A stretch of DNA of 32,000 nucleotides from Sinorhizobium meliloti (GCF_017876815.1 NZ_JAGIOS010000001.1:3000001-3032000); one strand, 5' to 3'. Shown: positions 1,082-15,885, counted from the stretch's first letter. Notes: a model not told the origin generated them from the sequence alone. Numbers and translations are program-made.

Positions 1082-1720
1082 ATGAAGACTGAACCCATCA
1101 TCCCCCAGAGTCTCGCGATCCACGCGCCGTCAGCCGCGGCGATTAATGCGCTGCTCTATCCCCATGCCGAGATCGTCCTGCACGATCTTGCGAGCGGGCG
1201 GATCGCCGCGATCTGGAATGCTTTTTCCGGCCGGGGCGTGGGCTTGGTATCGCTCATCGAGGATGGCCTCGGGGACATCGTTGAGGGCGCCTCCGTGCTT
1301 GGGCCCTACGAAAAGACGGGTGCGGATGGGCGGCGGCTGAAATCCGTATCCGCGGTGCTGCGCGACGGCGAAGAACGTGCCGTCGGGTTGCTCTGCATCA
1401 ATCTCGATGTTTCCCGTATCGACGACGCCGTGAGGCTGCTCGCGGCCTTTGCCGGCACGCCGGAACGACGGCCGCAGGCATTGTTTTCGCGCGACTGGCG
1501 CGAGGAGATCAATGCAGCGCTGCACGCTTGGCTAAAGGTGAGGGGCCTTGCGCTTTCCGCCTTGAAGCGCCCGGATCGCGTGGCCCTGGTTGCGGCACTC
1601 GAAGAGCAGGGGCTCTTCAAGACCCGCAACGCCGTCGACCATCTGGCAAGCCTGATCGGCACCTCGCGCGCATCCATCTACAACTATCTCTCAGCCGCGC
1701 GCGACGAAGGCGCCGCCTGA
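1082..1720 (+). CDS. YheO/DauR-like transcriptional regulator (PAS-like sensor plus C-terminal HTH)
   Basis: 212 aa. The N-terminal part matches the YheO-like PAS pattern (YPHAEIVLHDL, GLLCINLDVS). The C-terminal HTH is VDHLASLIGTSRASIYNYL. The gene lies 38 nt upstream of the aminotransferase, as an apparent operon. Confidence 0.8.
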   Translation: MKTEPIIPQSLAIHAPSAAAINALLYPHAEIVLHDLASGRIAAIWNAFSGRGVGLVSLIEDGLGDIVEGASVLGPYEKTGADGRRLKSVSAVLRDGEERAVGLLCINLDVSRIDDAVRLLAAFAGTPERRPQALFSRDWREEINAALHAWLKVRGLALSALKRPDRVALVAALEEQGLFKTRNAVDHLASLIGTSRASIYNYLSAARDEGAA

Positions 1721-1758
1721 ATGAGCACCGAGCCTCGCCTTCAAAGGGAAGAACGACC

Positions 1759-2901
1759 ATGACGACCTTGCCGGCCTTCCGCCTCGAGACGCATTTCTCG
1801 CGCTGGGAGTTCACGGCGCGCCACCACATGACCGCGAGCGACAGCGAAACCATGTCGATGGCCGAACTTCTTTCGCTTGCCGACGAGGCCGATCGCGACG
1901 CGTGGGAGCGGCTGACGCTCGGCTATACGGAGACCCATGGCGCTCCGGCGCTCCGCAAGGCGATCGCCGCGACCTACGAAGGGCTTGAGCCGGAAGATAT
2001 CCTCTGCTTCGCCGGTGCCGAGGAGGGGCTCTACTGCGCCATGCTGGCTCTGCTCGGTCCCGAGGACCATGCCATCGTCACCGTGCCGAATTACCAGTCG
2101 ATGGAAACCCTTCCGGTCACGATCGCCGCCTCGGTAAGCGGTGTTGCACTCCGTCCCGAGAACAATTGGCAGCTCGATATCGCCGATGTCCAGTCGGCGC
2201 TGCAGCCGAATACGAAGCTGATCGCGGTCAATTTCCCCAATAACCCGACGGGCGCTGTCGCCGAGCCGTCGGTCTTTCGCGCGCTCGCGGCACTCTGCGC
2301 CGAGCGCGGCATTCATCTTTTCAGCGATGAGGTCTATCGAGGGCTGGAGCGCGACGAGGAGAAGCGCCTGCCGCAGGCGGCCGAACTCTTCGACCGCGGT
2401 ATTTCGCTCAACGTCATGTCCAAGGCCTATGGCCTTCCGGGGCTTCGGATCGGCTGGATCGCCTGCCGCGATCACGCGCTTCTCCAGCGCATGGAAGGCA
2501 TGAAACACTACCTTTCCATATGCAATTCCCGGCCATCGGAGGTGCTGGCGACGATCGCGCTGAAATCCCGCCATCGGATACTCGAACGCAATCGCGCACT
2601 CTGCACGCGAAATCTCGAAAAACTCGGCGCCTTCTTCGCCGAGTTTGCCGATCTCTACGAGTGGCAGGCGCCGGACGGCGGCTGCGTCGGCTTCGCCCGC
2701 TATCACGGGCCGGGCAGTGTGGAGGAACATTGCCGGCGCCTTGTCGAGGAATCAGGCGTGCTGTTGCTTCCTTCAAGCCTTTTTGTCTCCGATCTGCTGC
2801 CGGTCGCGCAGGATCGCTTCCGCGTCGGATTCGGCCGTAGGAACATCGAAGAAGGGCTCGAAGCCTGGCGCAATCATCTGCGACGGGCGCGCGTGAGGTG
2901 A
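1759..2901 (+). CDS. class I/II-fold PLP-dependent aminotransferase
   Basis: The track ORF 1528-2901 was trimmed to ATG 1759, preceded by AAGGGA at 1744-1749. The upstream 77 codons are Arg/Pro-rich and overlap the regulator gene. PLP-lysine context is NVMSKAYGLPGLRIGW, with NFPNNPTG also present. Confidence 0.85.
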   Translation: MTTLPAFRLETHFSRWEFTARHHMTASDSETMSMAELLSLADEADRDAWERLTLGYTETHGAPALRKAIAATYEGLEPEDILCFAGAEEGLYCAMLALLGPEDHAIVTVPNYQSMETLPVTIAASVSGVALRPENNWQLDIADVQSALQPNTKLIAVNFPNNPTGAVAEPSVFRALAALCAERGIHLFSDEVYRGLERDEEKRLPQAAELFDRGISLNVMSKAYGLPGLRIGWIACRDHALLQRMEGMKHYLSICNSRPSEVLATIALKSRHRILERNRALCTRNLEKLGAFFAEFADLYEWQAPDGGCVGFARYHGPGSVEEHCRRLVEESGVLLLPSSLFVSDLLPVAQDRFRVGFGRRNIEEGLEAWRNHLRRARVR

Positions 2902-2973
2902 TCGGCGGGGTGGCGCCGGCCGATTGCACATGTTAACGACGCGCCGACCTCACGGAAGTACCTGCCTCGCATT

Positions 2974-3070
2974 ATGCATTATAGACCCGAGATCGACGGG
3001 CTGCGCGCCGTCGCCGTAATCCCCGTCCTGCTGTTTCACGCCGGCTTTATCTCCGGCGGTTTCGCGGGAG
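2974..3070 (+). pseudogene. N-terminal remnant of an acyltransferase family 3 (OafA-like) gene
   Basis: MHYRPEIDGLRAVAVIPVLLFHAGFISGGFAGV is the canonical start of acyltransferase-3 proteins (YRPEIDGLRA..., FHAG, GGF.GVD). After about codon 32 the reading becomes Arg-rich nonsense and stops at 3198. No other frame continues the family. Confidence 0.55.
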
Positions 3071-3196
3071 TCGGAGCGCGGTCGGTTCGGGGCACCTTTG
3101 CACGGGATTTGCGATCTCGAAAAGCTTGCTTTCGTGAGCGCCAGCGCCGTCCCGGCGGCGCACATGCGCACTCACTCTGGTCCCGTAAAATAGGAT

Positions 3197-3220
3197 AGCT
3201 CCGGCTTTGCCGCCGGAGCT
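3197..3220 (-). terminator. intrinsic terminator-like hairpin downstream of bmt
   Basis: AGCTCCGGC-TTTGCC-GCCGGAGCT gives a perfect 9-bp stem, 15 nt after the bmt stop. On the minus strand it is followed by AUCCUAUUUUAC. Confidence 0.55.
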
Positions 3221-3235
3221 GCCGCAAGCATTACC

Positions 3236-4249
3236 TTACGCGCGCCGACGGCGCTCTCGGGCCGGGGCGGCGGGGCCTTCATTTGCCGATTTGTTGCGCA
3301 ACGGTCCGATCTTCTCGACGATCGTTTCGAGCGTGGGGCGCTCGCCCCTGGTGTGATTGTCGATCGCAAGCCGCATTGCGGCCAGATGGTTGCAGGAGGT
3401 GCCGCAACAGCCGCCGATGATCTTGGCACCGGCATCGACGGCCAGCCGGGCATATTCCGCCATCAGCGGCGGAGTCCCGGAATAATGGATCTCCGAGCCG
3501 CGGAATTCGGGAATGCCGCAATTGCCCTTGACGACGATCGTAGCCTCTGGGCTTGCAGCCGTCATGTCGAGCAGCGAGGAAAGAATGTCCGACGCCCCGA
3601 CGCCGCAATTCGCGCCGACGGCAACCGGACCTTCGCCGATATCAGCGGCGACGCCGTGAATGTCTTTCGGGTGCAGGCCCATCATCGTCTTGCCGGCGGT
3701 GTCGAAGGAGCCGGTGTAGACATAAGGGAGGCCGACCTTCGCCGCGGCTTCGGCGGCCGCACGAATTTCGTCCGGAGAGGACATGGTCTCGATCCAGGCG
3801 ACCTCCGCGCCGCCGGCTTTCAGGCCCTCGATCTGTTCGACAAAGGCCGCGACCGCGTCCTCATAGGAGAGGGCGCCGAGCGGTATCAGCAGTTCGCCCG
3901 TTGGGCCGACGGACCCGGCCGTAATGACTTTTCGCGGAGCCTTGTCGGCGACGGCGCGCGCGATTTCTGCCGCCCGCTTGTTGAGCTGGTGGACCCGGTC
4001 TTCGGCCTGGTGAAGCTTCAGCCGGTGGCGTGTGCCGCCAAAGGAATTGGTGAGAATGATGTCGGCACCGGCATCCACGAAGTCCTGATGCAGCTTGGTG
4101 ATGTTGTCCGGCTTGGTCTCGTTCCAGATCTCCGGCGCCTCGCCCGCTTCAAGCCCCATGGCGAAGAGCGACGTGCCTGTGGCTCCATCGGCAAGCAGGA
4201 CGCCCTTCTGGGCGAGGAGATCGGAAAGGGCATGGGCTGCAACGGACAT
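3236..4249 (-). CDS. bmt: homocysteine S-methyltransferase family protein, betaine-homocysteine methyltransferase type
   Basis: The track ORF was trimmed to ATG 4249 (MSVAAHALSDLLAQKGVLLADGATGTSLF). Pfam S-methyl_trans pattern is present: ILTNSFGG, and the zinc-ligand motifs GANCG and GGCCGTS. It neighbours betaine-type ABC genes. The symbol rests on family plus context, not on a search. Confidence 0.8.
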   Translation of the reverse strand: MSVAAHALSDLLAQKGVLLADGATGTSLFAMGLEAGEAPEIWNETKPDNITKLHQDFVDAGADIILTNSFGGTRHRLKLHQAEDRVHQLNKRAAEIARAVADKAPRKVITAGSVGPTGELLIPLGALSYEDAVAAFVEQIEGLKAGGAEVAWIETMSSPDEIRAAAEAAAKVGLPYVYTGSFDTAGKTMMGLHPKDIHGVAADIGEGPVAVGANCGVGASDILSSLLDMTAASPEATIVVKGNCGIPEFRGSEIHYSGTPPLMAEYARLAVDAGAKIIGGCCGTSCNHLAAMRLAIDNHTRGERPTLETIVEKIGPLRNKSANEGPAAPARERRRRA

Positions 4250-4324: not shown

Positions 4325-5173
4325 TCAACGCGGCAATTCGTCCGCAAGCAGCGCGGCAAGGTCGGCTGCGGGCTTATCCGCCCGGGCGTGCAGACGCAGG
4401 CTGAATTCCGCCGGCGGCAGGGATGGCAAGCCGAGATGGGCAGGAGCGCGCTCGATGCCAGTGCCGAGAAATCGTCCCGTCCGGGTGGTAACGGCGATGC
4501 TGCTCAAGACAGCCGCGCGTAAGCCCGACAGGCTGGGGCTCGTTGCCGCGATCCGAAAGCGGCGGCCGGTTCTCTCTAGGGCCGATATGGCGGCGGCGCG
4601 GAAGCCGCAAGGTGGGTCGAGCACGGCGAGGGGTAGCTCCTCTTCGTCCGTTGCCAAGCCCCTGTCGGAGCAGAGCCAAAGCATCTGTTCGCCGAGCACA
4701 AGCAATTCGTCATCTGCAGCCGCCTGTCGCATGGCAAGAAGAATGTCGATCTGGCCCTGATCGAAGTCGGCCGTCAATTCTTTCGACCTGCCGATCCTCA
4801 AATCCAGGCGAATGCGCGGATGGGAGCGCGCGAAGCGGCGCAGCAATCCGGGCAGCATCGTATCGGCAAAGTCCTGAGTGCTGCCGAGGGAGATCCGTCC
4901 ATCGGCGCGCGCGCCCCTGAGGCTGAGCCAGGCGTCGCGATGCGCATCCAAAATGCGCCGGGCATGCGCGGCGAGTTCCTCTCCCACGGGCGTGAGCACA
5001 CGTCCGCGCCCGGCGGGCGCAAGAAGGCGCTCGCCGATCAGCGCTTCCAACCGCTGCATTTGCGCCGTCACGGCGGAGGGCGAACGGTTGACGGCCATTG
5101 CCGCTCTTGCAAGCGAACCGCCTTCGGCGAATGCGAGAAAAGTGCGCAGCAGTTCGGGATCGATCGGATTCAT
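4325..5173 (-). CDS. LysR family transcriptional regulator
   Basis: 282 aa. N-terminal wHTH is LRTFLAFAEGGSLARAAMAVNRSPSAVTAQMQRLE, followed by a LysR substrate-binding-type C-terminal domain. It is divergent from the tautomerase gene. Confidence 0.9.
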   Translation of the reverse strand: MNPIDPELLRTFLAFAEGGSLARAAMAVNRSPSAVTAQMQRLEALIGERLLAPAGRGRVLTPVGEELAAHARRILDAHRDAWLSLRGARADGRISLGSTQDFADTMLPGLLRRFARSHPRIRLDLRIGRSKELTADFDQGQIDILLAMRQAAADDELLVLGEQMLWLCSDRGLATDEEELPLAVLDPPCGFRAAAISALERTGRRFRIAATSPSLSGLRAAVLSSIAVTTRTGRFLGTGIERAPAHLGLPSLPPAEFSLRLHARADKPAADLAALLADELPR

Positions 5174-5174
5174 A

Positions 5175-5191
5175 CTTCAGTTTTACAGAAG
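5175..5191. promoter_or_regulatory. LysR-type T-N11-A dyad
   Basis: CTTC-AGTTTTACA-GAAG lies immediately upstream of the LysR start, in the 100-bp divergent region shared with the tautomerase gene. Confidence 0.35.
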
Positions 5192-5273
5192 TATTCCTGC
5201 AAAACAATTCGATTTTTTTGATGTGGCAGCGGTGGCAAATTGAAGAGGTGTTATTTCGAGAAAGGAACCTGTG

Positions 5274-5681
5274 ATGCCCATCATCAACATCAGCGTTACC
5301 GGACAGCCGGAGCCGGAGCTTTCGGCGAAAGTAGCGGCAAAGGTAAGCGACCTCACTCAGTCGCATCTTCGCAAGGACCCCTCGGTGACGGCGGTCGTCG
5401 TCAGCTATGTCGATCCGCGGCATTGGTTCGCGGGCGGAAAATCGCTCGCATCGCAGCAGGCCAGCAGTTTCTGGCTCGACATCAAGGTTGTCGACGGCAC
5501 CAATACCAAACAGGAACTTGGCGCCTATATCGAAGCGATCTTTGCGTCCTTCGAGGATATTCTCGGGACTGTCCATCCCGAAAGCTACGTGCTCGTGCAT
5601 GAGGTACCGGCGGCAGCCTATGGCTATGGAGGCAAGACGCAGGAGTTCAGATACATCAGCGGAAGGCTGGCGGTCACTTAA
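5274..5681 (+). CDS. tautomerase superfamily protein (long, about 135-aa form) with Pro at position 2
   Basis: MPIINISV... places the catalytic-type Pro1 after Met removal. GAAAGGA at 5259-5265 precedes ATG 5274 (the track starts one codon earlier, at GTG 5271). Confidence 0.75.
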   Translation: MPIINISVTGQPEPELSAKVAAKVSDLTQSHLRKDPSVTAVVVSYVDPRHWFAGGKSLASQQASSFWLDIKVVDGTNTKQELGAYIEAIFASFEDILGTVHPESYVLVHEVPAAAYGYGGKTQEFRYISGRLAVT

Positions 5682-5746
5682 ATATCACCTGTCGAGCGCG
5701 CGCGGCGCTGTAGCAGAAGGTCGACCGCACCGATCGAGCATCCGTT

Positions 5747-6090
5747 TCAATGACTCTCGACTGGTTTGGATGCCGCCAGGGCGGCCAGCCGCCGAGGCAG
5801 GTTCGTGCGGGCGTGCAGGAAATCGACGATGATTACCTGCTCGGCATTGTCGACAAACACGATGAAGTGCTGGCCGCAGCGGGCAAACCGCAAATCTTCG
5901 GGCAGTTCTGAACTGATGATGCGGCGGCAATCCTGCGACGGCACCGTTCCCGCCGCGATCCCGGCGCAGCGAGCGATCAAATCCTCTTTATAACCCGCAG
6001 CCTGCTCGGTCCGAAGTTTTCAACTGTCCAGCGGGCGATAACGGTCAACGACGTTTCCGCGGATCGGGTCAGTCGCCAGGATTTCGGCAT
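5747..6090 (-). pseudogene. parE: ParE/RelE-family toxin gene interrupted by a frameshift
   Basis: ATG 6090 overlaps the parD stop (ATGA). Frame A reads MPKSWRLTRSAETSLTVIARWTVENFGP, then SRLRVIKRI and a stop at 5977-5979. The family continues in the -1 frame: EQAAGYKEDLIARCAGIAAG...HFIVFVDNAEQVIIVDFLHARTNL, ending at 5747. The break maps to about 6003-6009. Confidence 0.7.
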
Positions 6091-6548: not shown

Positions 6549-7595
6549 TCAAGCCGCCTGCCGGTCGGTATGCTGCACGGGCGTCACCATGGCGGAGATG
6601 ATCATCTGCAGGTCGATCGCACCGATCGGGCGGCCATTGGCGTCGACGACATGCGCATTGCTTATTTGCGCGCCGGTCATGGTGCGGGCGGCGGCTTCGA
6701 GCACGGTGCCTGCGGCGAGCGGCAGGCCTTCCGGATTGCCGGACAGCGGCCGCATGATCGTTTCCACGTTGACCACCCGCCCGCGGTTCACTTCCTTCAC
6801 AAAGGCCGTGATGTAGTCGTCGGCCGGCGAGAGCACGATTTCCTGGCCGGTTCCCTGCTGCACGACGCGGCCGTCGCGCAGGATGGCGATCTTGTCGCCG
6901 AGCCTCAGGGCCTCGTCGAGATCGTGGGTGATGAACACCACCGTCTTCTTCAACTCCTTCTGCAGTTCGAGCAGCACCGACTGCATGTCGACGCGTATCA
7001 GCGGATCGAGTGCCGAATAGGCTTCGTCCATCAGCAGTATGTCGGCGTCGTTTGTAAGTGCGCGGGCAAGGCCGACGCGCTGCTGCATGCCGCCGGAAAG
7101 CTGGTTCGGATAGTGCTTTTCGAAGCCTTGAAGGCCGACGCGCTCGATCCAGCCAAGCGCACGCTTCTCGCTCTCGCGCCGGTCCACGCCTTGGATCTCC
7201 AGACCGTAGATGGTGTTCTCGAGAACCGTGCGATGCGGCAGCAGTGCAAATTTCTGAAAGACCATCGCCGTCTTGTGGCGGCGGAATGCGCGAAGGTCGT
7301 TCTCGTTCATCTTGCAGACGTCGACGCCGTCGTAGAGGACTTCGCCGGAGGTCGGATCGATCAGCCGGTTGATGTGCCGGATCAGCGTCGATTTGCCGGA
7401 CCCCGAGAGCCCCATCACGACCGTTATGCAGCCGCCAGGCATGGAAATGTTGATGTCCTGCAGTCCGAGCACGTGGCCGTGCTTTTCGTTGAGTTCGGCC
7501 TTACCCATCCCGTTCTCGACGAGCTTGACGTAATCCTCCCCGCGCGGGCCGAAAATCTTGTAGAGGTTCTTCACCTCGATTGCGTGACTAGCCAT
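6549..7595 (-). CDS. proV: glycine betaine/proline-type (quaternary amine) ABC transporter ATP-binding protein with C-terminal CBS region
   Basis: Walker A is GLSGSGKST, the signature is LSGGMQQRVGLARAL and Walker B is ILLMDEAYSALD. The ProV-typical N-terminus is NLYKIFG, followed by a CBS-like tail. ATG 7595 is preceded by GGGGAAAGG (the track start 7601 is a TTG). Confidence 0.9.
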   Translation of the reverse strand: MASHAIEVKNLYKIFGPRGEDYVKLVENGMGKAELNEKHGHVLGLQDINISMPGGCITVVMGLSGSGKSTLIRHINRLIDPTSGEVLYDGVDVCKMNENDLRAFRRHKTAMVFQKFALLPHRTVLENTIYGLEIQGVDRRESEKRALGWIERVGLQGFEKHYPNQLSGGMQQRVGLARALTNDADILLMDEAYSALDPLIRVDMQSVLLELQKELKKTVVFITHDLDEALRLGDKIAILRDGRVVQQGTGQEIVLSPADDYITAFVKEVNRGRVVNVETIMRPLSGNPEGLPLAAGTVLEAAARTMTGAQISNAHVVDANGRPIGAIDLQMIISAMVTPVQHTDRQAA

Positions 7596-7814
7596 GGACA
7601 ACCTTTCCCCTTCTCTTGGCTTGGAGCTTTTACGCCGACTGCGTTTTCGCGGCGCTTGCCGCTCCTTGCATCAGAACTGTGACAGCGGAAGACGCGGACC
7701 GCTTTACTGTTTGCGACGCAGGCGCGGCTCGTGCGTCGCGCATCAGGCAGCCGCATCCTCGAAGGGGCACCGGAATCGATCACGTTCACGACTTCAGGCC
7801 GATCCGACCGACAA

Positions 7815-8813
7815 TCAGAGCGCCGCCTTCACCTTTTCGGCGACCTCCGGGCTTACCCACTGCGTCCATATCTCCTGGAAGTTCCCGAGGAAGTAGCGGG
7901 CGGCGCTCTCGTTCGTCCCCTGGTTCTGATCCATCCAGGCCAGAACCTTGTTTACCGTCGCGTTTTCCCATTGCCGCGCCTCGACGTAGTCCATGGCGCT
8001 GCCTGCTCTATCGGCAAAGGACTTGGTCACCACGGTATAGACGTCCGAGACCGGATAGGAGTTTACCTTTGGGGTCGGGCAATCCGGAGCGGCAGTGCAG
8101 GAGTCCCATTCCGCCTTGTCGTGATCCACACCGAAAGACAGCAAGGTCATCTCGTACTTGCCGAGCAAGGCGGTCGGAGCCCAATAGTAGCCGAGCCAGC
8201 CGGTCTTCTTCTCGAATGCTTCGGTGATCGACGCGTCAAGCCCGGCAGCAGAACCGGGATCGATCAGCTGGAAGCCGGCCTTTTCCGCATCGAGAGCCTT
8301 GTAGAGATTGGCGGTGGAGAACCGGCAGTTCCAGCTTGAAGGGCAATTATGGATCGCTCCCTTTGCGGGGTTCTCGTGAGAAGGGAAGAGTTCCGGGTGC
8401 TTCAACGCGTCCTGCACCGTTCGGATATCCGGGTGCGCGTCGGCGATGAACTTCGGAATCCACCAGCCTTCGACACCGCCTTCGCTCAAGATCTTGGCGC
8501 CCTCGACGAGGCGGCCCTCCTTGACTGCGGCATCGAAAGGCGTGCGTACGGAGTTGATCCAGAGTTCCGGCACCAGGTCGGGCTCTGCCTTCTCGTTCAT
8601 CGAGGTGAAGGTCAGCATCGTGTCGCCGGCGACGAGCTTCACGCTGCAGCCATAGCCGTTTTCCAGGATGAACCTGTCCACGTGAGCCGCGACGCCCGCC
8701 GACGCCCAGTCCATCTCGGCTATGCTGACGTCGCCGCATTCGGCAGCTCCGGAGGGGCCCGCCAGAGAGCATATGCCTGCCGTGAGGATGAGGGTAGCAA
8801 GGAGTTTTTTCAT
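7815..8813 (-). CDS. proX: glycine betaine-type ABC transporter substrate-binding protein (OpuAC/ProX family), secreted
   Basis: The track ORF was trimmed to ATG 8813 (MKKLLATLILTAGICSLAGPSGAAE signal peptide). Trp-rich OpuAC-like blocks are EMDWAS, GWWIPKF and GYYWAPT. Confidence 0.85.
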   Translation of the reverse strand: MKKLLATLILTAGICSLAGPSGAAECGDVSIAEMDWASAGVAAHVDRFILENGYGCSVKLVAGDTMLTFTSMNEKAEPDLVPELWINSVRTPFDAAVKEGRLVEGAKILSEGGVEGWWIPKFIADAHPDIRTVQDALKHPELFPSHENPAKGAIHNCPSSWNCRFSTANLYKALDAEKAGFQLIDPGSAAGLDASITEAFEKKTGWLGYYWAPTALLGKYEMTLLSFGVDHDKAEWDSCTAAPDCPTPKVNSYPVSDVYTVVTKSFADRAGSAMDYVEARQWENATVNKVLAWMDQNQGTNESAARYFLGNFQEIWTQWVSPEVAEKVKAAL

Positions 8814-11211: not shown

Positions 11212-12027
11212 ATGCAGCAATACGACGACGATCTTCGGCAGTTCGAAGCCCGGGGCGCACCGGCTCTGCCTCCAGCCGCGGAGCAGGGCTATGTGGAGCG
11301 CGATGGCGCCCGGATATGGTATTCGACATACGGCGCGGGAGCACCGGTGGTCCTTTTGCACGGCGGCCTCGGCCACAGCGGCAACTGGGGCTATCAGCTT
11401 GCGCCGCTTCTTGACGCAGGCCGTCGCGTCGTGCTCATCGACAGCCGCGGACATGGGCGCAGCACGCGTGATGAGCGGCCCTACAGCTACGAAGTGATGG
11501 CATCCGACGTCCTCGCCGTCGCGGACATGCTGCAGCTTCAGAAGTTCGCCGTGGTGGGCTGGAGCGACGGGGCTTGCATCGGCCTCGTTCTTGCGAACCG
11601 CGCGCCCGAGCGCATTGCCGGCGTCTTTTTCTTCGCCTGCAACATGGACCCGAGCGGCGCGACAGAATTCGAGGCCACTCCGGTTATCGATCGTTGCTTC
11701 GCCCGGCACCGGAAGGACTATGCCGAATTGTCGGCGACGCCGGATCAGTTCGACGACTTCGTCTCGGCCGTCAGCGAGATGATGAGTACGCAACCCAATT
11801 ACTCGGCAGGCGACCTCGCCGAAATCCGAGTACCGGTCGCGGTCGTGCAGGCCGAGAAGGACGAGTTCATAAAATGGGAGCACGCCCAATATCTCGCCCG
11901 GAGCATTCCCGCAGCCGACTTGATCGCGCTTGAACACGTCAGCCACTTTGCGCCGCTGCAGAGACCCGACGTGTTCAACGGCGCCATGCTTGCATTTCTC
12001 GACAAGGTCCTTCCAACCAGGACCTGA
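11212..12027 (+). CDS. alpha/beta hydrolase fold protein
   Basis: The track ORF 10321-12027 was trimmed to ATG 11212 (AAAGGA at 11201-11206). Motifs are HGGLGHSGNW, the nucleophile elbow GWSDGA, and a C-terminal HF..LQ.P pattern. Confidence 0.85.
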   Translation: MQQYDDDLRQFEARGAPALPPAAEQGYVERDGARIWYSTYGAGAPVVLLHGGLGHSGNWGYQLAPLLDAGRRVVLIDSRGHGRSTRDERPYSYEVMASDVLAVADMLQLQKFAVVGWSDGACIGLVLANRAPERIAGVFFFACNMDPSGATEFEATPVIDRCFARHRKDYAELSATPDQFDDFVSAVSEMMSTQPNYSAGDLAEIRVPVAVVQAEKDEFIKWEHAQYLARSIPAADLIALEHVSHFAPLQRPDVFNGAMLAFLDKVLPTRT

Positions 12028-12151
12028 GCTTTACACCCGTCTTCACGTTCTCCGTTGCATACGCCTTGCGAAAAATGCAGCATGGTTTCGGGGTAGGACG
12101 ACCTCTTCGCCGCTGTGCATGGCGACGGCGTCCGGCGCGAAGGGCGCTGCC

Positions 12152-14329
12152 ATGGCACGCACGCAGCTAGTTGGGGTCATTATCGGCCTGGCGATCGTCG
12201 CGGCGCTCACAGTGCTGCGTGCAACCGATCCGCCACTTTTGCGTCTCGCCCGCGATCTCACTTTCGACGAGTACCAGCGCCTGGCGCCGCGCAGCTTCGA
12301 GAACGTTCCGGTTCGCGTCGTCGACATCGACGAGGCGTCGCTGAAAGAGTTCGGCCAGTGGCCGTGGCCGCGCGACCGCGTTGCCGCTCTGGTCGACCGG
12401 CTCTCGGAAATTGGCGCGGCGGCGATAGCCTTCGACATCCTGTTCTCCGAACCCGACCGTCTTTCGCCGCGCAGCGTCATGCGCGACGTCGCCGGCGTCG
12501 ATCAGGCGCTCCTTAAGCGGTTGCCGGACAATGACGAGATACTCGCACGATCGATCGGCGACCGGCCCGTCGTGCTCGGTTTCGGCCTTACCAACGCAGG
12601 CAACTACCGGCCGCCGGTGAAAGCGGGTTTCGCCTTCACCGGGGAAAGCCCGTTCGATGCGCCGCCGCGGCTTACGGCTGCGACTCCTTTGAGGCCGCAA
12701 CTCGAAGCCAGGGCCGCGGGCCTGGGCCATATAAGCCTCAATCCCGGCAGCCGGTCGGCCGTCGTGCGCTCGGTCCCGCTGCTGTTGAGCGATGGCGAGC
12801 AACTCTATCCGAACCTGGCCCTCGAAGCGCTGCGCGTGGCTCAAGGCGCTTCCACCTACATCGTAGCGGGTGCTCCGGATGCGCCCGATACCATCACGCT
12901 GATCAAGGTCGGCGAATTCGTGGTGCCGGTGACCGCAGCGGGCGAACTCTGGCTCTATGTCAGTCCGGATCGCGCTGAAAGATATGTCTCTGCCGGCCGG
13001 GTGCTGGCGCCCGGCGGAGTTTCCGCCGAAACGAGGGCAGCGATCGAAGGCGGTATCGTATTCGTGGGCACGTCGGCAGCAGGCCTGCAGGACATTCGCA
13101 CCACGGCTCTTGGGCACAATGTGCCCGGAGTGTCGCTGCACGCGCAGACTGTCGAGCAGGTCCTCTCGGGCCGCTTTCTCTCCCGCCCGGATTGGGCGGA
13201 CGGACTGGAGATCCTTGCGATCGCGGCTGCAGGCAGCCTGCTTGTCCTGCTGACCACCTTCGTCAGCCCGGCCGTCGCGCTTGCCTGCGGCCTCCTGATA
13301 ACCGCGCTGGCCCTCGTGGCCTCCTGGTCAGCCTTCCTTTATGCAGGCCTGCTATTCGACCCTCTGGCTCCAATCCTTGCCGGATCGATCACCCATTTTG
13401 CGGCAACCGCCTATCGGTTCCTGGTCATAGACCGGGAGCGGCGCGTGGTTCGGCGCGCCTTCGGCCAGTACCTGTCGCCCTCGCTTCTCTATCGCATCGA
13501 GCATACGCAGGACGCCCTGCGTCTCGGCGGCGACGATCGTGAGTTGACGATCATGTTCGTCGATGTACGCAACTTCACGGAGATCAGCGAGCGCCTGACG
13601 CCGGGAGAGGTGGTCCGTTTTCTCAATACGCTGCTCGACGCGCTGAGCCGCCATGTCATCGCCAACGAGGGCACGCTCGACAAGTTCATCGGCGATTCGA
13701 TCATGGCGTTCTGGAACGCGCCCGTCGACGTCGCCGATCACCCCGGCAAGGCGGTCCGCGCCGCCTTGGCCATGCGCGAGACGCTCGCCCGGCTCAACGA
13801 GAGCGACGCCTTCGGCTTCGGGAGCGATCAAAAGGTGGCGATCGGCGTGGGAATCCATACCGGGCTTGCCTGCGTCGGCAATATGGGGGCGGAGATGCAC
13901 TTCAACTATTCGGCCGTCGGCGACGCGGTCAACATCGCCGCCCGGATCGAGGCCGCCTGCAAGGACGTCGGCTTCGATATTCTTATATCCGAGACGACGG
14001 CGGATTTGGGCGAACGGTGCGCCGTGCTGGAGGCGGGGGCGCTGGCGCTGAAGGGCAAGAGCACGCGAACGCGGGTATACGCCGTGGTCGGTGACGAGCA
14101 TATGGCCGCTTCGGCCGAGTTTTCCGAGCTGCAGCGCATTCATGAACAGTTGATCGGGGCGATGCGTTCGAGGTCACGGCCGCGCAGAGAACTCGTCAAT
14201 GCCGCAAAGCTCAAGGCTCCGGCCCTATGTGGAGGATTATCGGATTTCTACCGCCGCATCGGGCGCCGGACAGACCACTTTGCCGGTGAGCCTTTGCCGT
14301 TCGCAGACGAAGTCGGATCCGCCGAGTAG
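12152..14329 (+). CDS. CHASE2 sensor domain-containing class III adenylate/guanylate cyclase (membrane receptor cyclase)
   Basis: ATG 12152 is preceded by GAAGGG. The order is an N-terminal TM segment, a CHASE2 pattern (VVDIDEASL..GQWPWPR..AAAIAFDILF), three TM segments, then the cyclase core (IMFVDVRNFT, KFIGDSIMAFWNAP, GLACVGNMG, YSAVGDAVNIAARIE). Confidence 0.9.
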   Translation: MARTQLVGVIIGLAIVAALTVLRATDPPLLRLARDLTFDEYQRLAPRSFENVPVRVVDIDEASLKEFGQWPWPRDRVAALVDRLSEIGAAAIAFDILFSEPDRLSPRSVMRDVAGVDQALLKRLPDNDEILARSIGDRPVVLGFGLTNAGNYRPPVKAGFAFTGESPFDAPPRLTAATPLRPQLEARAAGLGHISLNPGSRSAVVRSVPLLLSDGEQLYPNLALEALRVAQGASTYIVAGAPDAPDTITLIKVGEFVVPVTAAGELWLYVSPDRAERYVSAGRVLAPGGVSAETRAAIEGGIVFVGTSAAGLQDIRTTALGHNVPGVSLHAQTVEQVLSGRFLSRPDWADGLEILAIAAAGSLLVLLTTFVSPAVALACGLLITALALVASWSAFLYAGLLFDPLAPILAGSITHFAATAYRFLVIDRERRVVRRAFGQYLSPSLLYRIEHTQDALRLGGDDRELTIMFVDVRNFTEISERLTPGEVVRFLNTLLDALSRHVIANEGTLDKFIGDSIMAFWNAPVDVADHPGKAVRAALAMRETLARLNESDAFGFGSDQKVAIGVGIHTGLACVGNMGAEMHFNYSAVGDAVNIAARIEAACKDVGFDILISETTADLGERCAVLEAGALALKGKSTRTRVYAVVGDEHMAASAEFSELQRIHEQLIGAMRSRSRPRRELVNAAKLKAPALCGGLSDFYRRIGRRTDHFAGEPLPFADEVGSAE

Positions 14330-14341
14330 AGAGGGAGTGCT

Positions 14342-15250
14342 CTAACCGCGGCCCTTCTTCGTGCCTGTGTCCAGTTGCCCGTTCTTGCCGGTATCCTGGC
14401 CCTTCTTGCCGGTGTCCTGCCCCTTCTTGCCCGTGTCCTGCCCCTTCTTCCCCTTGTCGAGGCCACGCTTGCCCGGCTCGTTGCTGGGTGTCTTGCCCGG
14501 GCGGGGCGCCTTTTGCGGGCTTGCTCTTTCGGGCGGCCGCGCGCGTTCCGGCGCGGTCGGCTTGATCTCGACAGCGGCCGAAATACCGCAACTGCCGCTC
14601 ATGCTGCCGAAGGAGGCAGACAGTCTTTGGTCGCCCGAAAGAAAGGGCAGGGCCTTCCGGTTTCCGAGCGTCGCCAGTGTGCGGCGACCGGCCCTGTGCG
14701 TGTCCGTCATGGTTCCGTCGCGCTTTGCGATCACGCAATCGCAGCGTCGGGTGAGCTGCTGGCATCCCGCCGGGCCGCAGAACCGGGCCGCGCCCTCCAG
14801 GAGAACGATCGCCGTCGTTCCGTCATTGCCGATGTAGAAATCGAACACGGTTCCGCGTACGCCGATCGTTCCGGCAGGTGTCAGGATCTGATAGGCCGAG
14901 TGCTTCGAATTTCCGCTGATCCAGCGAAACGTGCCTTTGGCGGCGGCGACGGTGAGTTGCTGCACCGATTTCGAATCGTTGAAGACGAACTTGTCGATGA
15001 CGACGGAAGAGCCTGCCCCCACCGCCAATTTACTGCCGTCGCGGAACACGAACTGGCCGAGCCCGGATCTGGACGTGCTTATTCGCTCGTCCCGGTGAAC
15101 GGCGTCCCGCTCCACGAGCGGTCCGCCGCTGCCGGTGACCACCGTCCTGATCCGGACCGCTTCTCCAACCGGTTCGGCAGCAATTGTCGGTATGGAACCG
15201 TAAAACGCTGCGCCCAACACAGCGATTGCGGCACGACGCAAGTGAAACAT
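14342..15250 (-). CDS. FecR-domain protein with signal peptide and Lys/Gly-rich repeat tail
   Basis: The track ORF was trimmed to ATG 15250 (GGAGGG 6 nt upstream). The signal peptide is MFHLRRAAIAVLGAAFYGSIPTIAAEP. FecR-like blocks are GTFRWISG and TPAGTIGVRGTVFDF. The C-terminus is GKKGQDT x3. Confidence 0.8.
   Translation of the reverse strand: MFHLRRAAIAVLGAAFYGSIPTIAAEPVGEAVRIRTVVTGSGGPLVERDAVHRDERISTSRSGLGQFVFRDGSKLAVGAGSSVVIDKFVFNDSKSVQQLTVAAAKGTFRWISGNSKHSAYQILTPAGTIGVRGTVFDFYIGNDGTTAIVLLEGAARFCGPAGCQQLTRRCDCVIAKRDGTMTDTHRAGRRTLATLGNRKALPFLSGDQRLSASFGSMSGSCGISAAVEIKPTAPERARPPERASPQKAPRPGKTPSNEPGKRGLDKGKKGQDTGKKGQDTGKKGQDTGKNGQLDTGTKKGRG
14380..14452. repeat. 21-bp tandem repeat, about 3.5 copies, inside the 3' end of the FecR-domain gene
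   Basis: The copies are gttcttgccggtatcctggcc, cttcttgccggtgtcctgccc, cttcttgcccgtgtcctgccc and a partial cttcttcccc. They encode the GKKGQDT heptads. Confidence 0.85.
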
Positions 15251-15457
15251 CGCACCCTCCACGATGATCTCCTGCGGCCGACGTGGTCCGGGATCATGAG
15301 CGTGAATGAGAAATAACCGGATCGACACAATGTCGCCGGACCCCAAGCATTCATTCTTATCATGGGGTGGGCGGAAGTGTCTGCCTACCCGTTCGGAGTA
15401 GCCGACGCAAAGCGCATTTCTGCCGTAATCGGCGGCCCCGGTGTCGCAGGCCGTCGA

Positions 15458-15486
15458 TTGACTTTGCCGCCGCCGCTTCATAATTA
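15458..15486 (+). promoter_or_regulatory. sigma70-type promoter of the cobP operon
   Basis: TTGACT (15458-15463), a 17-nt spacer, then TAATTA (15481-15486). The riboswitch begins immediately downstream. Confidence 0.45.
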
Positions 15487-15494
15487 ACGCAGTA

Positions 15495-15885
15495 TGGATG
15501 GTTCTCTCGTGCCGAGGTGGGGCGAGGGAGTAAATGGGAATGCGAAGGGGCGGACCCACGCCGGGCGCCCTTATCGCAGCCGACCCCGCGACTGTAGAAC
15601 GGTCAGGGTTCGCCATCGGGCATTTCGCCGGATTTCAACGCGCTGCATGGGCAGTCTCGTGAAGTTTGGCGGCATGTCGGAAAAGCCACTGGCGTGGCAT
15701 TGCGATCAGCCGGGCAGGACGCCTCTTCTTCTACGAATCGTCCGCCTTTCGCGATGCCGCAAACGCCGGGAAGGCGAGGCGAGCCCGTTCGGTCTTTTGC
15801 CGCATCGTTTTTCGGGCCGAGCCGGTCCGGCGAACGTGCGGCCATGAGGATCGTGACGCCGTGAGCCAGGAGACCTGCCATCCGT
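15495..15885 (+). promoter_or_regulatory. cobalamin (B12) riboswitch, unusually expanded
   Basis: The conserved blocks occur in the canonical order. They are AAATGGGAA (15532-15540), CCCGCGACTGTAGAACGG (15585-15602), GCCACTGG (15685-15692), CCGGGAAGGCG (15766-15776) and an exact B12 box AGCCAGGAGACCTGCC (15864-15879). It sits upstream of cobP-cobW-cobN-cobO. Confidence 0.8.

Follow-up and report, generated by a model that had tools for sequence, protein, structure and literature searches.

The convergent gene pair cyaD2 and SMc04306 of Sinorhizobium meliloti sets a receptor adenylate cyclase tail-to-tail against a small protein with a FecR domain. The pair lies in a stretch of 32,000 nucleotides (NZ_JAGIOS010000001.1:3000001-3032000), referred to here as the window, and positions are counted from its first letter unless another locus is named. 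A sequence-only reading of the window recognised a cyclase with a CHASE2 sensor domain beside a secreted FecR-domain protein, stated that the two families are frequently neighbours, and put forward the second protein as a candidate periplasmic co-sensor. We find that the two genes form a unit that is kept while its surroundings change, that their products have diverged in step, and that SMc04306 is probably a periplasmic partner of the CHASE2 domain of CyaD2, relaying or gating an envelope signal for the synthesis of cyclic AMP (cAMP).

An exact-sequence look-up identifies both genes. The cyclase is an exact match to the entry 'adenylate cyclase CyaD2 [Sinorhizobium]', and its setting in the cobalamin (cob) cluster, between cobQ and cobU-cobW-cobN, matches that of strain Ak57. 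The cyclase half of the locus is an already known, named gene. The earlier claim that this gene shares the architecture of CyaD1, CyaD2 and CyaK is right as to architecture, and the CHASE2 and Guanylate_cyc domain calls are borne out by Pfam, but the gene is CyaD2 itself. Hydrophobic segments at aa 1-27 and 348-402 flank the predicted periplasmic domain, and identity over the CHASE2 region is 72-96% across 77 CyaD2 orthologues. A PDB sequence search with the CHASE2 profile gave no significant match. CHASE2 is a widespread bacterial sensor domain for which, to our knowledge, neither a ligand has been defined nor a structure solved. CyaD2 has been equated with SMc04307, and a role in secondary infection that involves cAMP and Clr has been described for CyaD1, CyaD2 and CyaK (PMC5498481); CyaD2 is reported to synthesise cAMP upon a plant signal (PMC5498481, PMC7529298).

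The neighbour matches exactly a 'FecR domain-containing protein [S. meliloti]'. An intergenic entry in PMC2573895 sets SMc04306 next to SMc04305 (cobPW); because CyaD2 is SMc04307 and SMc04306 adjoins SMc04305, the FecR-domain gene is SMc04306. The signal peptide, the FecR domain, the Cys-rich middle and the basic repeat tail that had been described from the sequence are all present, as judged by Pfam, alignment, tandem-repeat search and composition. Homologues numbered 643, and the best 120 of the 643 all carry PF04773. The N-terminus consists of RR, a hydrophobic stretch and a predicted AA/E cleavage site, with A24-A25-E26 nearly invariant and a helix at aa 5-17 of the structural model; these features suggest export to the periplasm. 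In the AlphaFold2 (AF2) model, aa 27-175 form an all-beta core that begins with a first strand at aa 27 and has a block-mean predicted local distance difference test (pLDDT) score of about 77-96. Foldseek, queried with this model, returned the PupR CCSSD (6ovk_R, E 2e-6, root-mean-square deviation 2.3 A) and the anti-sigma protein BDI_1681 (4m0h, E 5e-7), and a PDB sequence search with the FecR-protein profile had no significant match.

Two features of the protein are strongly conserved. G133-T134, which alignment places opposite the self-cleavage site Gly181-Thr182 of E. coli FecR (PMC8144685), is invariant in 46 orthologues. In the same set C158, C163, C170 and C221 do not vary and C172 hardly does, C221 being a fifth conserved Cys; the Cys-rich motif sits on beta-hairpins (aa 146-175 of the model). 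Past aa 175 the model has short helices and then a disordered tail, with a block-mean pLDDT of about 40-55 and values below 50 at aa 228-235, 253-255 and 259-299. Alleles of 302 aa and 295 aa among S. meliloti strains differ by exactly one KKGQDTG unit; the S. medicae form has 294 aa. Across genera the repeat tail is not conserved, its place being taken by low-complexity sequence rich in Pro, Lys, His and Asp, and for this reason the tail is probably a spacer or tether that may vary, and unlikely to be a specific sensing element.

The geometry claimed for the pair also holds, that is, the gap of 12 nt, the lack of a terminator within it and both start codons. The cyclase reading frame (ORF) ends with TAG at 14327-14329, and the stop codon of the minus-strand FecR ORF occupies 14342-14344. 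The terminator scan found no terminator-like site in or beside the gap, and folds spanning it form no hairpin and are no more stable than shuffled sequence (z -0.3 to -0.9). Given that no terminator was found, the overlap of the two transcripts that the sequence-only reading took to be necessary is plausible. The cyclase start agrees with the 725-aa form of nearly all records, and orthologues of many genera align from residue 1. The ATG of SMc04306 at 15250 has a GGAGGG ribosome-binding site 4 nt to its 5' side, within the 8-mer GGAGGGTG, which is the commonest 8-mer upstream of FecR-gene orthologues (26/75 by k-mer counting). Beyond this Shine-Dalgarno sequence, k-mer counts over the 75 loci revealed no conserved promoter motif 5' of the FecR gene. 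A longer FecR ORF reaching 15616 was rejected, as it would cross a cobalamin riboswitch antisense. This riboswitch lies 5' of cobU and scores below the Rfam gathering threshold, so that it was missed in the default scan of the window; the match agrees with the riboswitch listed in the SMc04305/SMc04306 intergenic region (PMC2573895). The pair is flanked by cobQ and an alpha/beta hydrolase gene on one side and by cobU-cobW-cobN on the other. Together with this hydrolase gene, which is found at this place in S. meliloti and S. medicae only, it interrupts the cobalamin cluster between cobQ and cobU over 11212-15250.

Table 1. Features of the cyaD2/SMc04306 locus and its immediate surroundings (positions in the window).
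Feature	Position	Strand	Basis
cyaD2 (SMc04307), CHASE2 receptor class III adenylate cyclase, 725 aa	12152-14329	+	exact match, Pfam
CHASE2 domain PF05226, aa 16-362, predicted periplasmic	12197-13237	+	Pfam, E 2.3e-52
Class III cyclase catalytic domain PF00211 (Guanylate_cyc), aa 464-639	13541-14068	+	Pfam, E 5.7e-22
Gap between converging stops, 12 nt, AGAGGGAGTGCT	14330-14341	unstranded	sequence, terminator scan, folding
SMc04306, FecR-domain protein, predicted exported, 302 aa	14342-15250	-	PF04773, exact match
Disordered basic tail, aa 226-302, isoelectric point 10.4, K+R 20, D+E 9	14345-14575	-	composition, model
21-bp tandem repeat, about 4 copies, KKGQDTG units	14376-14458	-	Tandem Repeats Finder
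Cys-rich motif CGPAGCQQLTRRCDC, aa 158-172 (C158, C163, C170, C172)	14735-14779	-	orthologue alignment
FecR-type beta-solenoid domain PF04773, aa 56-155	14786-15085	-	Pfam E 9e-12, AF2, Foldseek
G133-T134 in GVRGT	14849-14854	-	hmmalign, opposite E. coli FecR G181-T182 self-cleavage site
Predicted Sec signal peptide, aa 1-25, MFHLRRAAIAVLGAAFYGSIPTIAA/E	15176-15250	-	hydrophobic segment aa 7-23; cleavage inferred
Shine-Dalgarno GGAGGG of SMc04306, part of 8-mer GGAGGGTG	15255-15260	-	sequence
Cobalamin riboswitch RF00174, 5' of cobU	15482-15631	+	27.1 bits, E 8e-5 (Rfam gathering score 31.5)
Alpha/beta hydrolase gene	11212-12027		
Clr-box site with one mismatch, about 215 nt 5' of cyaD2	11921-11936		

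The conservation of the pair was assessed by scanning the FecR alignment against one genome per species, which gave 80 loci from Sinorhizobium/Ensifer, Rhizobium, Phyllobacterium, Mesorhizobium, Pararhizobium and Mycoplana (Rhizobiaceae and Phyllobacteriaceae). A convergent CyaD2 orthologue lies directly 3' of the FecR gene, on the opposite strand, at 77 of the 80 loci, or at 77 of the 78 that are informative: two of the misses are contig ends, and in the third a truncated FecR gene is followed by an ORF read by eye as an IS110-like transposase. The flanks behave differently. As a control, the cob flanks stand beside the pair at 10 of the 80 loci and the alpha/beta hydrolase gene at two; every other ORF cluster is confined to 15 of the 80 or fewer, and no TPR or phosphodiesterase gene is conserved beside cyaD2. 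Since the pair is kept while its flanks change, the two genes form a unit moving between genomic contexts, and in the S. meliloti clade this unit sits within the cob cluster. The distance from stop to stop has a median of 36 nt over the 77 loci and ranges from -6 to 329 nt, apart from two outliers, one of which comes from a tandem FecR duplicate and the other (L021) probably from an in-frame stop or a sequencing error in the cyclase ORF. It is 11 nt or less at 27 of the 77 loci, three of these being overlaps. Tandem FecR duplicates beside the CyaD2 orthologue were seen in four Ensifer/Sinorhizobium genomes (L018, 9147-10175; L017, L022 and L034, at about 6735-7817).

The neighbourhood extends beyond the rhizobial orthologues. 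Matches found by tblastn in PLSDB replicons supplied a sample of 20 more CHASE2 loci, all of them from Alpha-, Beta- and Gammaproteobacteria. Two of these (Ruegeria, Shinella) were known to have FecR matches before selection, and the Ensifer PDNC004 locus looks like a CyaK orthologue, because its upstream ORF is NsrA-like, and may not be independent of the S. meliloti cyaK/nsrA pair. A FecR-domain ORF adjoins the CHASE2 gene at 18 of the 20 loci, the output being a cyclase, a histidine kinase or none. The FecR gene is mostly upstream and co-directional in these loci, and convergent across a 10-nt gap in Methylosinus. About 1 Mb of DNA flanking the 80 rhizobial loci contained no unrelated FecR ORF by a hidden Markov model of the FecR core, which was built from CHASE2-linked FecR domains, and chance adjacency is therefore negligible. 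The N-termini of 13 other FecR partners look signal-peptide-like by eye, with no predictor applied. FecR partners elsewhere are linked to LysM or OmpA modules, which suggests tethering to the wall or the outer membrane. A profile search for diverse CHASE2 proteins returned CyaD2 orthologues only, and no wider sample of neighbourhoods. CHASE2-FecR clusters have been published from Burkholderiales and P. aeruginosa (PMC5192318) and from Campylobacterota (PMC9239204).

Within S. meliloti, a FecR-domain gene adjoins all three CHASE2 cyclase genes, as SMc04306/cyaD2, SMc02177/cyaD1 and nsrA/cyaK. With 3/3 here added to the orthologous and the more distant loci, the association that the sequence-only reading had named is a real and conserved one. 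On pSymB, the ORF 5' of cyaK, taken as nsrA by position, has a stop that overlaps the cyaK start; its putative product combines a signal peptide and a FecR domain (E 2e-15) with TPR repeats and a C-terminal region whose last residue is Phe; the beta-barrel assignment of that region is that of the literature. The cyaD1 locus, which tblastn with a Methylobacterium CHASE2 query had not retrieved, was reached through coordinates from PMC2573895. On the Ak57 chromosome the order is spdA, the sel1-repeat gene smc02178, the FecR gene smc02177 (+), cyaD1 (-) and clr, with smc02177 converging on cyaD1 over a gap of 227 nt. Identity is 29% between CyaD1 and CyaD2, 27% between SMc02177 and SMc04306, and 24% between the FecR domain of NsrA and SMc04306.

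Across 14 FecR/CHASE2 pairs, the identity of the FecR core tracks that of the CHASE2 periplasmic domain (Pearson r = 0.69; Mantel test, a value as high in 0/10,000 permutations). The S. meliloti paralogues are not mutual nearest relatives: the CyaD2 pair is nearest to Ruegeria and the CyaD1 pair to Methylosinus, for both partners. Since the nearest relatives agree for both partners, the modules are old and have been inherited as pairs.

Two observations were made on the S. meliloti replicons that carry these modules. The PLSDB record CP090106.1 (3.72 Mb), labelled 'plasmid pSymB' of strain Ak57, carries the cob cluster, cyaD2, cyaD1 and clr, and by this gene content it is evidently the chromosome. 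On pSymB of strain RMO17 (L002, 3766-4374, minus strand), an ORF of 202 aa encodes a PycTM domain (Pycsar effector, PF18967, E 1e-11); it is divergent from the nsrA-cyaK operon and lies just upstream of it, placing an effector domain of cyclic-nucleotide systems beside a cyclase locus.

Several known systems resemble the pair in part. Like other CHASE2-associated FecR proteins, SMc04306 is encoded next to a CHASE2 gene, carries a predicted N-terminal export signal and has no cytoplasmic domain. NsrA-CyaK (SMb20775/SMb20776) also places a FecR-domain envelope protein beside a CHASE2 adenylate cyclase, but the ORF taken as nsrA encodes about 1,200 aa in which FecR is joined to TPRs and to an outer-membrane beta-barrel predicted in the literature, and it is co-directional with cyaK, whereas SMc04306, soluble and 302 aa long, has a Cys cluster and a basic tail and is encoded convergently. 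In SMc02177-CyaD1 a small standalone FecR-domain protein likewise converges on a CHASE2 cyclase. SMc02177 differs in sequence (27% identity over 141 aa), in having neither the Cys cluster nor the repeat tail, and in belonging to a larger cluster (clr, smc02178 and the phosphodiesterase gene spdA) as a Clr target. The Burkholderia 'BiofilmReg' operon and P. aeruginosa PA4035/PA4036 (COG4254) encode an exported FecR-domain protein beside a CHASE2 sensor (PMC5192318), an arrangement also present among the loci sampled here, but in a co-directional operon, with a histidine kinase and response regulator as output, LysM on the FecR protein, and a phenotype in biofilm and not in symbiosis. The CHASE2 cyclase clusters of Campylobacterota also include a FecR-domain protein of the outer membrane, together with a TPR protein and a phosphodiesterase (PMC9239204); the cyaD1 locus has the same set of parts, whereas at cyaD2 only the FecR gene accompanies the cyclase.

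The FecA-FecR-FecI and PupB-PupR systems share with SMc04306 the periplasmic FecR beta-solenoid fold, the PF04773 domain and the conserved GT motif, and their logic is similar, passing from an outer-membrane protein through a periplasmic FecR domain to an inner-membrane transducer. The remaining parts of such a system are absent. SMc04306 has no N-terminal cytoplasmic anti-sigma domain and no transmembrane anchor, there being only about 25 signal-peptide-like residues before the beta-rich mature part; Pfam finds no STN-like or FecR_C subdomain, nor any match besides FecR; and no gene for an extracytoplasmic function (ECF) sigma factor or a TonB-dependent transducer lies near it (the neighbours are cyaD2 and cobU) or forms a conserved cluster in the 80 loci. 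With no anti-sigma domain, membrane anchor or STN subdomain, SMc04306 is not an anti-sigma factor. By analogy, it may work like a cut-down cell-surface signalling relay, for which the presumed receiver would be CHASE2 and the output cAMP.

The pair bears on the question of how a signal seen by NsrA at the outer membrane passes to CyaD1 and CyaD2 in the inner membrane. By genetic evidence, cAMP signalling requires NsrA both for CyaK (signal 1, with uL2 as a candidate) and for CyaD1/D2 (signal 1-prime) (PMC7529298, PMC13001267). We propose that SMc04306 is made with a Sec signal peptide and would be released to the periplasm, where its FecR-type beta-solenoid core, presumably stabilised by the conserved Cys cluster, could act with the periplasmic CHASE2 domain of CyaD2. 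In doing so it would relay or gate an envelope-derived signal, most likely the NsrA-dependent plant signal 1-prime, and thereby influence the cAMP level set by CyaD2 and with it the way secondary infection is controlled through Clr. The tail, variable, basic and rich in Pro, would probably serve as a flexible tether or spacer in the envelope and not as a sensor. In such a scheme the FecR fold would be the cognate partner of CHASE2, joined to an outer-membrane protein in the case of NsrA and free-standing in SMc02177 and SMc04306. The suggestion of a periplasmic co-sensor was a reasonable one, strengthened by co-inheritance and co-divergence; the Cys motif is conserved, but the repeat tail is not conserved outside the species, and the record of the paralogue SMc02177 does not speak for it.

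Several points weigh against such a partnership. SMc02177, the closest analogue that has been tested, was not required for the shoot signal to be perceived (PMC5498481); this assay is chiefly a readout of signal 1 and CyaK, and its authors left other signals open for SMc02177 (PMC5498481). No Clr box (TGTTN8AACA) lies near either gene. The window holds only two Clr-box sites with one mismatch, fewer than expected by chance, and the one 5' of cyaD2 is not evidence of regulation. Both smc04306 and smc04307 are absent from the supplements of the Clr-regulon paper. Co-divergence is expected of co-evolving partners, but co-inheritance alone gives the same result, and it is no proof of contact. Two CHASE2 histidine-kinase loci (L089 and L099), each a response regulator with a CHASE2 kinase, from Cupriavidus EM10 and B. 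multivorans, have no FecR gene within 6 kb, so that an adjacent partner is not indispensable to CHASE2. Modelled by AF2 from a 37-orthologue alignment, the CyaD2 CHASE2 region reached a mean pLDDT of 45.6, too poor for a fold search or for reasoning about an interface. Lastly, SMc04306 was met in the literature searched only as a flank (PMC2573895), and no interaction, localisation or mutant study of it was found.

A bolder form of the proposal can be put forward only tentatively, and we hold it to be rather doubtful. FecR-domain proteins would be general, direct periplasmic co-receptors of CHASE2, which would read the state of its cognate partner, tethered in the envelope and possibly processed at the GT motif, and not a small ligand; the specificity of CyaD2 and CyaD1 for signal 1-prime, downstream of NsrA, would then come from SMc04306 and SMc02177. 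If this were true, the two proteins would be the missing periplasmic links.

The partner might act in the opposite sense. Bound to CHASE2 as a brake or decoy, SMc04306 could hold CyaD2 off or compete with NsrA's FecR domain until it is removed upon a signal, for instance through proteolysis that follows GT self-cleavage, as in FecR and FoxR. The alignment of the invariant G133-T134 with the GT motif of self-cleaving FecR is consistent with this, the tandem FecR duplicates of some Ensifer genomes would fit a tuning of dosage, and since NsrA, which CyaD1/D2 signalling needs, has a FecR domain of its own, competition from a second, free one is conceivable. We nevertheless regard a brake as unlikely: conservation of the GT motif may be structural only, and the smc02177 mutant is hyper-infecting (PMC5498481), as are cyclase-null mutants, which for that paralogue fits a positive role.

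It is quite unlikely that SMc04306 belongs to the same pathway as an envelope effector or output protein that senses nothing, co-inherited with the cyclase because both serve infection control or envelope remodelling. SMc02177 supports this view, being needed to keep secondary infection under control while dispensable for shoot-signal perception, and being itself a Clr target (PMC5498481); FecR partners are also often fused or linked to modules that bind the wall or the outer membrane, such as LysM, OmpA and the predicted barrel of NsrA. Yet a FecR neighbour is also present beside genes for CHASE2 proteins whose outputs are unrelated (histidine kinases, cyclases or none) in non-symbiotic bacteria, and adjacency across unrelated outputs ties FecR to the sensor domain and not to one output pathway. 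The tracking of FecR identity with that of the CHASE2 periplasmic domain points the same way, and the lack of a Clr box upstream of SMc04306 also counts against the effector view.

The tail-to-tail layout could itself be regulatory, with read-through antisense RNA or transcriptional interference giving reciprocal expression, a possibility compatible with a periplasmic partnership and in our judgement quite improbable. The 12-nt gap without a terminator, the short gaps or overlaps in about a third of the orthologous loci (27/77) and the recurrence of convergence at cyaD1/SMc02177 and in Methylosinus would all suit it. The gap is 227 nt at cyaD1, however, and reaches 329 nt among the orthologues, and most other lineages have the FecR gene co-directional with the CHASE2 gene and upstream of it; with large gaps and an operon layout elsewhere, convergence is not essential to the partnership. 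That SMc04306 is an ordinary FecR-type anti-sigma or iron-signalling regulator placed beside cyaD2 by chance, as the Pfam FecR match and the label 'iron dicitrate transport regulator FecR' in some of its records might suggest, is extremely improbable, the anti-sigma role being ruled out by the architecture (a signal peptide only, in place of a cytoplasmic domain and anchor, and no STN/FecR_C) and by a gene context that lacks ECF sigma and transducer genes and retains the cyclase in 77/78 genomes though the flanks change.

The cyclase gene and, in outline, the CHASE2-FecR neighbourhood were already known. What is new is that SMc04306 is placed as the FecR member of a third S. meliloti module, that the pair is shown by counts to be a mobile unit of two genes, that co-divergence is tested, and that the GT and Cys features are conserved. 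If SMc04306 is indeed the periplasmic partner of CyaD2, CHASE2 systems would be recast as cousins of FecA-FecR signalling with second-messenger or kinase outputs; if it is not, what remains is that a known gene and the neighbour conserved beside it have been correctly annotated. The S. meliloti system already offers reporters, mutants and a purified signal.

Some of the more distant CHASE2-FecR loci have settings of their own. The Ruegeria sp. AD91A plasmid (L083), home to the pair most closely related to the CyaD2 pair outside the rhizobia, has a TonB-ExbB-ExbD set (1455-4005, minus strand) divergent from the FecR-CHASE2 cyclase pair and two genes upstream of it, with a small hypothetical ORF between, an arrangement that recalls TonB-dependent cell-surface signalling. 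On a plasmid of Shinella sp. H4-D48 (L084), an 849-aa FecR-domain protein and a CHASE2 cyclase are encoded within a bacteriocin export cluster of NHLP type that also has a C39 peptidase, a secretion protein and ABC exporters. Paraburkholderia aromaticivorans (L085, 4707-7305) and Caballeronia (L102) pair a short FecR protein with a CHASE2 protein of about 495 aa that has no recognised output domain; an OmpA-family gene lies between the two genes in the former, and the same may be guessed for the latter from its gap at 5117-5755. In P. aeruginosa CP109682.1 (L090, 5842-8159), the CHASE2 kinase gene beside the FecR gene lacks a protein entry and is split into two overlapping ORFs, by a frameshift or a sequencing error.

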